Part shown: piece after piece, positions 17,398 through 52,426 of the stretch
How positions within the stretch are numbered: the stretch's first letter is position 1
How the letters are laid out: every line of letters starts with the position of its first letter
Source of the DNA: Eledone cirrhosa
Taxonomy: Eukaryota
NCBI GenBank assembly: GCA_964016885.1
Contig: OZ024740.1
Span: forward strand, 399,714,001-399,778,000
Reading direction: 5' to 3'
DNA: 64,000 nt
Made by a program: the position numbers and the translations under genes
Notes under the pieces: model-generated
Seen by the model: only the letters and a program-made list of their open reading frames with translations
Databases searched by the model: none
What the model was told of the DNA's origin: nothing

Positions 17398-17593
17398 ATA
17401 GGAAAAAGTATGACCCCGACGGCAGAGCTCAAGCCGTTTCGACGGCTATTTCTGGACCAGAAATAGTCGTCGAAACGGCTTGAGTTCTGCCGTCGGGGTC
17501 ATACTTTTTCCTATTTCCCACTCTACTACCCTAAGTATTGAGTACTCTCGTACGTTATGGTCCATCTGGTCCCTTACCATAATTCCTTCGTTA
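17398..17593 (+). mobile_element. mini PLE insertion: 58-bp hairpin arms plus ~80 bp tail
   Basis: Arms 17398-17455 and 17457-17514; right arm plus tail are homologous to PLE 3' end at 27224-27360; TA flanks. Confidence 0.85.
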
Positions 17594-17926
17594 TACATAT
17601 ATATATATGTATATATATATGTATATATATATATATATATATATATATATATATATATATATATATATATATATATATATATATATATATATATATGCAC
17701 ACACACACACACACACATACACACACATATATATACATATTTATGTATCTATATATGTATGTGAAACAATCAGGCGCATACACACACACATATAATCACT
17801 GCACTTTTTTTTAATATATAGGATAGAAAAATTAATCGGGCGTTTCAATATTATCGTTTCAAGATCGAAATGGTTCTTTTCCAAATTAATCTACTTTTTC
17901 TGCGCAGTCTGTAAAATATTACAGTA

Positions 17927-18038
17927 CAGGGTACAATCACGTTGACGGGCTCCGACTCCTTTTCGACATCTCATCAGATATGCGAGTTTATATGTGCAAA
18001 GTCAAAGAGTCGGGTGCCGTCACTTTGATTGTACCCTG
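17927..18038. repeat. imperfect 32-bp inverted repeat
   Basis: CAGGGTACAATCACGTTGACGGGCTCCGACTC / GAGTCGGGTGCCGTCACTTTGATTGTACCCTG; MITE or mini-PLE undecided. Confidence 0.55.
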
Positions 18039-18654
18039 AGCTGGTTGATTCGACTCTTTTAAATCTACACTCTGCACACTACAGCCGTAACACTGAAATA
18101 CAACCCAAACGAAACGGACCTCGTAACAGCATTTCCTGTAACTGTTATTACACAATTAACTAGCACACACACACACAACACACATACACACACACATACA
18201 ACACATACACACACACACACACACACACACACATGCGTGTGTGCATGTGTGTATGTGTGTGTATTCAATGTATCTATGTGTGAGTAAGTTTTGCTTTAGC
18301 ATGCAAACACGTTTTAAGTATTTTTCCTCAACCATAATAAAATAAACCGACTTTTTTTCTGTATACAATTTTTAGGTTGACTGTATTTTGACTGAATTTC
18401 ATTCTAGTTGTGCTAAACTTGAGGCATTTCGGATAATTGGAACAGTACGTACTTTCATTTTACCTATCAACATTCTCACGATTACCATCACTATCAACCA
18501 TTACAACCACAACGACCAGCACCAGCAACATCATCACGATCACCACCTCCACCACCACCACCAACAAACAACAAACAATAGCAACACAATCCTCCTCCTC
18601 ATCATCATCCCCAATACCACCACCACCACCACCACCACCACCACCACCATCATT

Positions 18655-18840
18655 GAGGCACAAAGCCAGACATTTGTGGGGAGGGTGAAGTCAATTATAT
18701 TGAACTAGTGCTTTACTGGTACTTTATTTTATCGACCTTAGAAGGATTAAAAGCAAAGTAGACCTCGGCAGGATTTGAACTCAGTACATAAACAGCCAGA
18801 ACAAATACTGCAAAGCATTTTTCCCGACATTCTAACGATG
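18655..18840 (-). mobile_element. older SINE copy following a (CAC)n tract
   Basis: ACTGGTACTTTATTTTATCGACC..GGATTTGAACTCAG family motifs. Confidence 0.7.
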
Positions 18841-48450: not shown

Positions 48451-48638
48451 ATATATATATATATATATGATATATATATATGATATATATATATATATAT
48501 GATATATATATATATGATATATGATATATATATATATGATATATATATATATATATATATGATATATATATATATGATATATGATATATATATATGATAT
48601 ATATATATATATGATATATATATATATATATATATATA

Positions 48639-51607
48639 GTATTAGTTATACTATTTATGGTTATGTAAACACAAAACCTTAAGCAGTTGTAAGTATTTTA
48701 CACACACCCTAAATAGTGGTAGGCAGTAATGTATTACTACCTTATTACCAGTAAGTTAAGTAGCTCAATGTAAAAACATCAGATGATTTACAGAGCAGTT
48801 ATATGAAATATATGAATCAAAGAACTGTTCAAAACATTATTGTGCTTACAGCTGTTTCCTCCAAACCGAGGTTTGGATTCTTCGGAGCAATTTATTAATG
48901 CATGGACAGTTATATGACCTCCTTTTCAGCCGAGAGACATACCAACACATATTCAAACATTGATACATATTCAAACATTGTGGGTCAACCTTCATTACAG
49001 AATTTAGAGTGGCAGTACACACTTCGAGATTACATTTATATCAATAGGTACAATCAAAAAAATCAAAGATATAGGTTAAAGTACAACATGAAGATAAGTG
49101 GTTATATAGTGCAAATGTTATATGTGTGGCACGCATGTGCGTCTTGTTTATATAGTGTGGCAGAGAGATATGTGTGGTAGAGGCACTTAGGTAGGTAAAT
49201 AAGAGTGTTAGGTTGGTAGATCTGGTGGCAAAGTCTTTATATGATTGATATAGTCTGTGTGTGGAGAAATATTATAAGCATTAAAGATAGTGCAAGCATT
49301 AAAAGTGTTATAAGTATTGGAGATGCACAGCGCAGGGATGTCAAGTAATTCATGTACTTCGGTATTTTCATGGTCAAGGGAGTGTATATTTCGATTATAT
49401 GCCTTTCACATAATCCACGACAATCCAGTTAGAGATCGTAGTCTGGTGCTCTTTAGTTCGATACAGGTGGTTGTTACGTTTCGAGAGACGCCATTGAATA
49501 CCGGAAGTGTGTGTGTGGCTAAGGGGAGTTAATGCATGCGGGGAGGTAACTCTGGGGTTTCTATATCTAGCCATTAAAATGTGTCTCAATATAGACCCTA
49601 AATTCTATGGTGAGGTGCACCTTCCAAGAGAGACTTTTAAAGCATAAAGTGTACTAACTATAGAGTAGTTTAACTAAATTATGCTGAAGGTGATCATATT
49701 ATTATTAGGGTGGATTAACCCATCTTAAGGTGCTACAAATGGAAATTATAGATGATGAGCGAGGATTCTAAATTAATGATCTCTATGGTTGTAGTCTGCT
49801 CATATGACCAGGCGCGGTGATTGCAGGATTGCTTCAGGACCCAATGATCTCTGGTAAGATCCGGGTCATCGCTTGCTACATTGGATGTCGAAAGATAATC
49901 ATCCCCAGGCAGGCCAAAGGTCAAGTCGCAGTCCTCGCGACCCCTCTCTGACCGTCAGGTCATCCATATACGTACAACCCGCACGGCAGTTGCATTGCAT
50001 TCACTCACTGCGCTCAGCGGCCTGGTCCTACTGGTCAACAGCGCTACTCGATTAAATCATTTTACATCTGTCTAAGGAAGGTGTTTCCTCTGCCCAACAC
50101 CATCCAACCGATCAATTGATGCTCAAATTACCCTTAGAGCGGCGTAGTGCCGTCCAGGTGGGTGGATGTTGTCACACCTGCCGTAGAGGTATAAATGGGT
50201 ATTTTCCCTGCGAAGGGTTCCAGAGGGATGTCGTTGTTTGTGTTATAATGGATCAGCTAGTGTTGGGTATGTAGTATAGGGTGTGTCTCTGGTGTTTGAT
50301 GCTAGATGTGGTGTTAGGTTCCAGTCCGACATTGCTATATATGGGGCTTAAAGTTTTGGAAGGAATGTCTGAGGCGGTGCTGGCAAGTTGCAAACACCTC
50401 AGATTTTTTGTTAAGTAGGTTACGGTTGGAGAAGATAATATTGTGTGTCTCTAGTATACAGAGGTTACAGAATTTATTAGGTGGTTTGTACGAGGTCGCG
50501 CTGCCTATCACTTCCCATTTGAGTGTGTATGGTTTATTTTTAGATTTTAGATAGTGAATGTAGCTAGAAAGTGAGGTGGAGTTGGCTAGGCTGTGCTTTT
50601 TGAACGAGTGGACTACAACCATAGAGATCATTAATTTAGAATCCTCGCTCATCATCTATAATTTCCATTTGTAGCACCTTAAGATGGGTTAATCCACCCT
50701 AATAATAATATGATCACCTTCAGCATAATTTAGTTAAACTACTCTATAGTTAGTACACTTTATGCTTTAAAAGTCTCTCTTGGAAGGTGCACCTCACCAT
50801 AGAATTTAGGGTCTATATTGAGACACATTTTAATGGCTAGATATAGAAACCCCAGAGTTACCTCCCCGCATGCATTAACTCCCCTTAGCCACACACACAC
50901 TTCCGGTATTCAATGGCGTCTCTCGAAACGTAACAACCACCTGTATCGAACTAAAGAGCACCAGACTACGATCTCTAACTGGATTGTCGTGGATTATGTG
51001 AAAGGCATATAATCGAAATATACACTCCCTTGACCATGAAAATACCGAAGTACATGAATTACTTGACATCCCTGCGCTGTGCATCTCCAATACTTATAAC
51101 ACTTTTAATGCTTGCACTATCTTTAATGCTTATAATATTTCTCCACACACAGACTATATCAATCATATAAAGACTTTGCCACCAGATCTACCAACCTAAC
51201 ACTCTTATTTACCTACCTAAGTGCCTCTACCACACATATCTCTCTGCCACACTATATAAACAAGACGCACATGCGTGCCACACATATAACATTTGCACTA
51301 TATAACCACTTATCTTCATGTTGTACTTTAACCTATATCTTTGATTTTTTTGATTGTACCTATTGATATAAATGTAATCTCGAAGTGTGTACTGCCACTC
51401 TAAATTCTGTAATGAAGGTTGACCCACAATGTTTGAATATGTATCAATGTTTGAATATGTGTTGGTATGTCTCTCGGCTGAAAAGGAGGTCATATAACTG
51501 TCCATGCATTAATAAATTGCTCCGAAGAATCCAAACCTCGGTTTGGAGGAAACAACTGTAAGCACAATAATGTTTTGAACAGTTCTTTGATTCATATATT
51601 TCATATA
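48639..51607 (-). mobile_element. PLE insertion with 997-bp inverted arms, 814 bp spacer and 161 bp tail
   Basis: 48800-49796 is inverted to 50611-51607; GIY-YIG C-terminus HSFKKH..LKWEVI..CNLC..CQH at 50610-50335 (-); TA flanks. Confidence 0.9.
48843..48889 (-). ncRNA. hammerhead variant (CCGAAGA core)
   Basis: TGCT-CCGAAGA-A-TCCAAACC-TC-GGTTTGGA-G-GAAAC-AGCT-GTA-AGCA; mirror copy at 51518-51564. Confidence 0.6.
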
Positions 51608-52065
51608 TATATATATATATATATATGATATATATATATATGATATATATATATGATATATATATGATATATATATGATATATATATATGATATATATAT
51701 ATATATGATATATATATGATATATATATATGATATATATATATGATATATATATATATATATATATATATATATGATATATATATATATATATATATATA
51801 TATATATATGATATATATATATATATATTTATATATATATATATATGATATATATATATATGATATATATATATATGATATATATATATATGATATATAT
51901 ATGATATATATATATATGATATATATATGATATATATATATATGATATATATATGATATATATATATATGATATATATATATATATATATATATATATAT
52001 ATATATATATATATGATATATCTAATATATATATATATATATATATATATATATATATATATATA

Positions 52066-52426
52066 AAGAAAAAAAGATGAAATCTAAAATGCAACTGGAG
52101 TCTTATTCAAAAAAATATATATATATTTATTTGGTTCCTTGACCGGTTTCGCAGTTCTTCTGCTTTTCAAAAGTAGAGTTGAGATGGAGGGTCTGTGGTT
52201 TTTCTCACATCTGTGAGATGTCAGATAAACCACAGACCCTCCATCTCAACTCTACTTTTGAAAAGCAGAAGAACTGCGAAACCGGTAAAGGAACCAAATA
52301 AATATATATATATATTTTAAAATAAGACTCCAGTTGCATTTTAGATTTCATCTTTTTTTCTTAAAACTTTTACTCGTCTAAGACACCTCGGTTAGTTTTC
52401 ATCTTGTAAAAAACCCTCACTCTCTA
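52066..52426 (+). mobile_element. 147-bp hairpin arms plus ~64 bp tail, PLE-like
   Basis: Arms 52066-52212 and 52216-52362; decayed HHR TTGAAAA-GCAG-AAGAA-CTGC-GAAAC-CG-GTA; TA flanks. Confidence 0.8.

Follow-up and report, generated by a model that had tools for sequence, protein, structure and literature searches.

A 64,000-nt window of the Eledone cirrhosa genome (assembly GCA_964016885.1, 3.0 Gb; contig OZ024740.1, positions 399,714,001-399,778,000 of the forward strand) holds six head-to-head repeat structures in which one arm bears a terminal tail that its inverted partner lacks. We designate as F1-F6 the repeat families to which window elements 1-6 belong, candidate Penelope-like elements and one hammerhead retrozyme; site A is the outer end with the tail, site B the outer end without it, and the tail is the stretch between B and A. 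In these families the outer ends lie at the two fixed sites, and 156 of 160 head-to-head insertions combine one A with one B. The reading that we favour, and consider probable, is that both ends of the cut target in (TA)n prime reverse transcription of a single RNA, at its internal sites A and B.

Outer ends of the arms

All six structures were found by self-comparison and sequence reading at the places given in an earlier reading of the same DNA (hereafter the original prediction). For each family, the first pattern hits along contig 1 were taken and the head-to-head pairs among them were fetched; the F3 pair sample covers the first 218 Mb, with 81 A-ends and 100 B-ends, and the pair tallies of F1, F2, F4, F5 and F6 were read by hand (L-numbers are locus labels). 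Exact hits numbered 14,448 for F1, 150 for F2, 20,092 for F3, 1,686 for F4, 2,055 for F5 and 13,580 for F6 (pattern hits, not copy numbers), against none for F1-F6 in a reversed-pattern control. Since each belongs to a family with 150-20,092 hits, the six structures are not chance occurrences.

When the outer-arm ends were compared with the family consensus, a check that the original prediction had proposed, they proved not to be scattered but to occupy two fixed sites per family. In F4 all the ends compared lie at unit positions 6896-6901 (B), at 7038 (A), or continue into the next unit, and the distribution is likewise bimodal in every other family, F1, F2, F5 and F6 included. Pairs of one A with one B make up 20/20 insertions in F1, 7/7 in F2, 53/53 in F3, 32/33 in F4 (a count that includes one duplicate of another pair and one B+B), 23/23 in F5 and 21/24 in F6. 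No A+A pair was seen, and about half of the pairs would be A+B if the sites were chosen freely. Genome-wide, F3 has 1,051 A-ends and 1,267 B-ends. A few TA-like letters stand at each end, A and B, and could pair with the target. B-ended copies also occur without a partner (L040, L108, L121, L250).

Two simple definitions of the sites were discarded. B does not coincide with the hammerhead cut site, and the distance between the two is not constant, ranging from ~20 to 130 nt by family; folding of the tail does not join A and B in one stem, as the predicted folds did not bring them together. At six F5 B-ends (L133, L134, L138, L151, L155, L158), the last 7-9 letters are repeated one to three extra times before the TA tract, which looks like slippage or repeated re-priming.

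Similarity of sister arms

In F4, sister arms differ at 0-4 of ~650 nt (17 comparisons at 15 loci), whereas separate loci differ by 4.3% on average. F3 insertions consist of two head-to-head arrays of the same short unit; the majority haplotype is common to both arms in 31 of 37 insertions, compared with 8% between arrays. Most units (317 of 369) are identical to the majority of their own array. At L070/L071, where a short F4 stub lies inside the microsatellite 3' part, the internal rearrangement is identical in the two arms. The arms of an insertion probably arose by twin priming on one template.

The retrozyme array at L312 differs along its length: its two outer units have one haplotype on both arms, and further in the longer arm carries a different one, as though one of the enzymes had changed template.

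Arm lengths and inner junctions

The longer arm is the A-ended one, the B-ended one, or neither (within 20 nt) in 9, 11 and 12 of 32 F4 insertions, in 11, 6 and 6 of 23 F5 insertions, and in 27, 20 and 2 of 49 F3 insertions, that is in 47, 37 and 20 of the 104 insertions together. The F4 count omits L072, L075, L076 and L080 (junction in the microsatellite, or a B+B pair), and the F3 count omits 3 complex loci of 52. The excess of the tail-less arm reaches 10.7 kb (L062) or 16 units (L293), in young copies whose arms are nearly identical. At L098, L103, L104 and L119 the tailed arm consists of part of the tail only and has no overlap with the other arm. A fold-back of tailed complementary DNA (cDNA) predicts a tailed arm that is never the shorter, so the 37 insertions with a longer B arm make plain fold-back insufficient; together with the non-overlapping arms and the solo B copies, they indicate that, barring frequent large deletions, B serves as an independent start site. 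The best reading is therefore still a priming event on each of the opposite target strands, as the original prediction had it.

Most junctions show an overlap of 0-5 nt or short, sometimes templated, inserts, as would be expected of end joining, and most lack TA between the arms. Centres of 0-2 nt (L052, L084, L085, L089) would be hard to obtain by direct fold-back.

The variable 5' junction of the original prediction holds for long copies and for the retrozyme, but F1, F2, F4 and F6 have a sharp hotspot. In F4, 23 of 51 arm ends (a denominator that includes a few reference-divergence artefacts) fall at unit positions 6690-6712, mostly on the A of TTCATT, among ends up to 700 nt upstream of the pattern. 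F2 has its hotspot at the matching spot (9 of 32 arms), F1 near TYAGTC (24 of 33) and F6 near CCAGAT (~22 of 49). The position is not fixed relative to the ribozyme, being at its 5' edge in F2 and F4 and inside stem II in F1, and junctions at one and the same hotspot are found in either polarity (L087 and L099). These hotspots resemble initiator motifs. The Penelope repeat of D. virilis has an internal promoter with an initiator (PMC2377424), and our guess is that the junction hotspot is a transcription start site; an RNA data search with one stretch of F4 listed no match. Inner ends did not pile up at the hammerhead cut site in F4 arms or in F3, where they spread over the whole unit, a spread that fits a circular or multimeric template.

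Position of site A relative to the RNA 3' end

The original prediction had placed one of the two priming events at the RNA 3' end. This part finds no support: in F1 (11 of 25 loci), F3, F4 and F5, copies run past A unbroken, into the next unit or the open reading frame (ORF), and a hairpin that seems to mark A sits beyond it. The motif tested consists of an RCTC stem, an upper stem, a 1-2 nt bulge and GAGY, and in most cases it stands 3-6 nt beyond A or B. In the 7,034-nt F4 unit it occurs exactly twice, at B+5 and A+6; in F5 it is present at B+4, with one unrelated match elsewhere. By eye, it follows both F1 sites and B of F2, and it also follows A of a seventh element in the window. Among 25 F1 loci not chosen for having it, 11 carry it past A. 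From these features of the sequence, both A and B are likely to be internal to the RNA. A hairpin beyond A would mean that the template of the long A-ended arms extends past A, which would require a tandem or circular RNA.

Identity of the families

F4, reconstructed from a tandem copy, has a 7,034-bp unit with an unbroken frame of 813 amino acids and a microsatellite-like 3' part of 4.4 kb, in which more than 3 kb of degenerate TA/TG microsatellite has been copied along with the element. This microsatellite part occupies 32389-34564 and 40439-42622 of the window, and was noted also at L081. The F5 unit is 4,189 bp long with an unbroken frame of 819 amino acids. Both proteins show, by eye, the motifs of a reverse transcriptase (RT) and a C-terminal endonuclease (EN), namely RWR, DKT, CxCx5C, CxxC and CxH. 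Their Atlas neighbours, at 0.96-0.98, have GIY-YIG in 31-50% and RVT_1 in 18-92% of members. The Pfam search gave no significant match for the RT-EN frames, and the search of solved structures none either. F1 copies that run on enter broken frames of the F4/F5 kind, with RWR and DKT, and F2 is ~73% alike to F4. Core motifs and stems of type I hammerheads were located by pattern in F1-F6, two of them of the U3-A8 type and one with a U4-to-C change; Rfam returned no hammerhead at the gathering score.

Traits of Penelope elements are present in the form of partial tandems (pseudo-long terminal repeats, pLTRs), an inverted 5'-truncated copy and a one-sided tail. The marks of the Hydra clade include an RWK-like motif, DKG changed to DKT, a CxCX5C linker, and CxxC and CxH beside conserved E and N (PMC8557442); on comparison with these marks, Neptune was rejected as the clade. 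Insertion into (TA)n, also a trait of that clade, is present, although the units of 7,034 and 4,189 bp exceed its typical size (<3 kb, not a strict bound). Elements 1, 4 and 5 are accordingly classified, by motif content, as putative autonomous EN-containing (EN+) Penelope-like families of the Hydra clade, and element 2 as a relative of element 4; element 6, in which no ORF was seen, appears consistent with the Penelope-like group. Hammerheads in Penelope-like elements, their U3-A8 type, opposite-strand pairs and a proposal of circles have been described (PMC4209133).

F3 is a non-coding tandem unit of 310-311 nt with a hammerhead motif, a strong fold (z = -4.8) and up to 27 units per arm. Retrozymes are defined by a tandem unit of ~150-400 nt, a type I hammerhead and strong self-pairing (PMC7229834; PMC7761336; bioRxiv 10.64898/2026.07.22.740005), and F3 is on these traits a putative animal non-LTR hammerhead retrozyme.

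The six elements of the window

The arms and their features are given in Table 1. The sizes proposed earlier were reproduced (tail-less arm/tail, in nt): 60/80 for element 1, 50/35 for element 3, 5959/134 for element 4, 997/161-164 for element 5 and ~150/65 for element 6; element 2 has a tail-less arm of 278 nt, ~235 of them mirrored, and a tail of 137 nt. The insertion rule of the original prediction holds across the six families, but its six scales reflect different families with random or hotspot truncation rather than one element in graded sizes. The TA-rich microsatellite setting is general, except that the right flank of element 2 is (CA)n. Site B is downstream of the family hammerhead in all six families, in line with the claim that the inverted arm ends 3' of this motif, but in element 3 the inverted arm has no hammerhead, and in element 1 each arm has just the 3' half of one. 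Element 3 has a tailed arm of 490 nt, which is not a single arm but 1.6 copies of the 310-nt unit. In element 5 the tail is at the left and the 804-nt spacer is part of the tailed arm, and in element 2 the spacer is part of the tail-less arm.

Table 1. Arms and internal features of the six head-to-head elements (positions in the window).
Feature	Position	Strand	Remarks
Element 1, tail-less arm	17398-17457	-	outer end = site B of F1
Element 1, tailed arm	17457-17594	+	tail 17515-17594; starts at F1 junction hotspot; hammerhead 3' half only
Element 1, small hairpin	17520-17543	+	RCTC stem, 2-nt bulge, GAGY; 5 nt beyond site B
Element 2, tail-less arm	21879-22156	-	~40 nt deeper into element than partner; hammerhead motif 21949-22065
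Element 2, tailed arm	22154-22526	+	hammerhead motif 22201-22319; tail 22390-22526; hairpin 22394-22477
Element 3, tail-less arm	29183-29232	-	50-nt piece of 310-nt retrozyme unit; no hammerhead
Element 3, tailed arm	29232-29721	+	1.6 retrozyme units; hammerhead motif 29526-29554; tail 29687-29721
Element 4, tail-less arm	31530-37488	-	site B (unit 6901) in to unit 925; hammerhead motif 31597-31727
Element 4, tail-less arm, truncated RT-EN frame	35815-37488	-	
Element 4, tailed arm	37493-43617	+	unit 909 to site A; truncated RT-EN frame up to 39182; 3' part of 4.4 kb, microsatellite-like
Element 4, tailed arm, further features			hammerhead motif 43286-43416; hotspot A nucleotide 43279; tail 43484-43617; hairpin 43488-43568
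Element 5, tailed arm	48636-50612	-	tail 48636-48799; hammerhead-like motif 48854-48885; contains 804-nt unmirrored part
Element 5, tail-less arm	50611-51607	+	ends at site B; hammerhead-like motif 51522-51553
Element 6, tail-less arm	52062-52213	-	U3-A8 type hammerhead motif 52146-52170
Element 6, tailed arm	52216-52430	+	starts at F6 hotspot; hammerhead motif 52258-52282; tail 52364-52428

Other repeats lie around these elements. At 28944-29115, two inverted arms of 50 nt surround a TA tract, the reverse of the layout studied here, where TA is outside the arms. The stretch 15041-15729 is probably another stub of Penelope type: it comprises an older inverted repeat at 15380-15729 (76% alike), a related piece at 15041-15161 and, near 15570, the motif CTGATGA...GAAAC. 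The stretch 22590-27361 is a composite of two families, in which a minus-strand Hydra-like element (22590-25451) with two terminal repeats and a frameshifted ORF is followed by a minus-strand F1-like RT-thumb piece (25451-25812) and then by a plus-strand F1 arm that reaches site A at 27361; it may reflect switching of the template from one family to the other, or nested insertion accompanied by loss. Over 2218-59946 there are ~20 copies of a 190-207 bp repeat resembling a short interspersed nuclear element, some of them as head-to-tail threes, with tandems at 11236-11816 and 54999-55612. Fragments resembling other non-LTR retrotransposons lie at 2795-3586 (minus strand), 4485-4991 and 45200-45700, with no family match in the Pfam search; they look like a restriction-like endonuclease end, an AP-endonuclease start and an RT tail.

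A model for insertion and its alternatives

In the mechanism that we propose, the element endonuclease would cut both strands within (TA)n, and two reverse transcriptases, probably a dimer, would be positioned at A and B, in the Hydra families by the small hairpin 3-6 nt beyond each site. Both enzymes would move along the RNA in the direction of its 5' end, and end joining would unite the ends of their cDNAs into a head-to-head insert whose tail is the B-to-A stretch. More tentatively, the long and multi-unit arms may come from circular or multimeric RNA, and many short stubs from linear RNA, at whose 5' end, a likely start site, both enzymes would run off at one spot. A stronger version can be put forward only as a possibility, somewhat short of an even chance: twin priming would be obligatory and coupled, a dimeric enzyme being placed by the hairpin pair on one RNA, frequently a circle produced by the ribozyme, at two of its internal sites, with each subunit taking one cut TA end and both rolling the same way.

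Several observations weigh against this account. The pairing rule has exceptions, L072 of F4 being B+B and three F6 pairs having an odd shorter end. The A site of F5 failed the hairpin test (its upper stem has one pair only), and the hairpin is degenerate in F6 and absent in the retrozyme F3, which still obeys the A+B rule. F5 has no single junction hotspot. Away from the hotspots there is an excess of junctions whose arms match to within 20 nt (3 in F4; 6 of 23 in F5), which suits fold-back as well as a shared run-off. Of 10 F4 copies that continue beyond A, not one ends at the hotspot, and one linear RNA therefore cannot account for every copy. The likeness of sister arms could also be due to gene conversion, and unequal arms could result if the middle of a fold-back palindrome was deleted later. 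The start sites of an anole element were alike on both strands in vitro (PMC11167929). Finally, the mechanism is read entirely from finished insertions.

The most serious alternative, which we nevertheless regard as unlikely, is that a single cDNA starts at A and folds back on itself, and that its copying goes on to B, where the endonuclease cuts or blocks it; the arms would become unequal through later deletions at the centre. Self-priming has been proposed for such palindromes (PMC3846280) and endonuclease resolution for the tail (PMC8557442), and a short spacer makes a palindrome unstable (PMC7999016). Fold-back predicts that an A is combined with a B and that the sister arms are identical, and 20 of the 104 junctions are symmetric within 20 nt. 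However, the tail-less arm is the longer in 37 of the 104, by as much as at L062 and L293 in young copies, solo B-ended copies and non-overlapping arms occur, and the hotspot junction is found in both polarities. In the shared stretch of retrozyme arrays, unit-specific variants are mirrored in one array only (6 variants), against 36 unmirrored, a weak argument as later mutation also gives unmirrored variants; element 4, for its part, persists as a 12-kb palindrome with a 20-nt centre. Pure fold-back from a tailed cDNA was dropped on the arm-length and junction data. The exact form of the original prediction, with one primer at the true RNA 3' end and the other at an internal site, is improbable: A is the furthest end in TA-flanked inserted copies, but tandem copies of four families continue past it, A and B share both the TA-like letters and the downstream hairpin, and in vitro both sites are internal (PMC11167929).

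Still less probable is an origin of the arms from two RNAs, or from two insertions in one TA tract, later made alike by gene conversion. TA tracts do gather several elements (elements 5 and 6 share one), the haplotype changes within one arm of L312, and the composite at 22590-27361 joins two families; separate events would nevertheless also yield A+A, B+B and tail-to-tail arrangements, whereas none of 53 retrozyme head-to-head pairs is A+A or B+B, most junctions have no TA between the arms, and L070/L071 repeats its rearrangement on both arms. The pair counts already largely refute this explanation. Chimeric reads can produce long perfect inverted repeats, and the palindromes might thus be fold-back artefacts of sequencing or assembly. 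In contigs of four runs at the centre of element 5 no joint is visible and no piece bridges the junction, which is uninformative in a high-copy repeat; an artefact is nonetheless scarcely credible, given that flanks differ between the two sides, that the tail is on one side only, that the arms differ by substitutions and microsatellite lengths, and that the ends fall at family-specific fixed sites over 160 loci.

Relation to known systems and significance

In L1 twin priming, the same RNA is primed by the second target strand; the resulting 5' inversion has microhomology where its pieces meet, its second priming site varies, and the pieces share no sequence. In the present families, by contrast, both sites are fixed and 35-164 nt apart, so that the arms overlap and form a palindrome. 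The one-sided tail was reportedly first described in reviews of 2005-2006. In the literature searched (mostly open access, those reviews not included) we found no twin-priming proposal for Penelope-like elements, no strict A+B pairing and no head-to-head retrozyme arrays.

Among Penelope-like elements, Pen2a_Av has an inverted pLTR with an optional 31-bp tail, for which self-priming was proposed (PMC3846280), and in EN+ elements a tail of 30-40 bp at one end is ascribed to endonuclease resolution, alongside TA targeting (PMC8557442, including its Figure 2 legend). The present families are alike in the head-to-head copy, the one-end tail, 5' truncation, partial tandems and the hammerhead in the terminal repeat, but the tails described in these accounts are 30-40 bp and optional, whereas in five of our families they are 65-164 nt and nearly obligatory on exactly one arm. 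With Hydra-clade elements (PMC8557442; for example Hydra-1_Obim, 2,507 bp) they share RW[RK], DKT, the CxCx5C linker, a C-terminal domain of GIY-YIG type, the hammerhead and (TA)n targets. That clade is described as <3 kb, in contrast to our units of 4,189 and 7,034 bp with long 3' parts, and the passages of PMC8557442 that treat it contain neither fixed paired ends nor the hairpin, its supplement noting just 4 copies that end at one site.

A biochemical parallel is PAc, the Poseidon element of Anolis carolinensis (Frangieh 2024), which in vitro cleaves and extends both strands from two internal starts that bound the tail, and whose protein is predicted to be a dimer (PMC11167929). It resembles our families in these starts, in the cutting and extension of both strands and in its AT-rich target, and it needs no hammerhead cleavage; it belongs to another clade, however, and its sites lie close together in an AC-rich stem-loop. 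The assays reported there do not extend to joint use of both sites on a single target, or to how inverted arms arise. How Penelope-like elements form inverted, tailed insertions is stated to be open in both PMC8557442 and PMC11167929.

F3 resembles animal non-LTR retrozymes in its non-coding tandem unit of ~300 nt, low GC and type I hammerhead, and for these, more-than-unit reverse transcription of circles by Penelope-like enzymes has been proposed; they are presented in these reports as simple tandem repeats (PMC7229834; PMC7761336; bioRxiv 10.64898/2026.07.22.740005), in contrast to the two head-to-head arrays seen here, with one tailed end, one tail-less end and one haplotype.

The layout of inverted arm, one-sided tail and TA target is thus already published, and the two-site start is known in vitro. 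What goes further is the near-obligatory A+B pairing, the polarity test against fold-back, the evidence for a single template, including that from retrozyme arrays, tails of up to 164 nt, and the junction hotspot.

Penelope-like elements are the closest mobile relatives of telomerase, and the insertion counts give sharp predictions for the existing in vitro assay, namely that A and B are used as a pair on one target, that two hairpins are required, and that copying runs off at a start site. The twin-priming reading accounts for thousands of palindromes, up to 12 kb long, in the Eledone cirrhosa genome, and its signature, found on a non-coding retrozyme as well, links the spread of retrozymes to the Penelope machinery. 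If coupled twin priming is true, this one step would account for inverted repeats, one-sided tails, tandems and start-site stubs, and for the head-to-head arrays of the retrozyme. The insertions would then provide direct evidence from a genome that retrozymes are moved by Penelope enzymes through two-ended rolling-circle copying.

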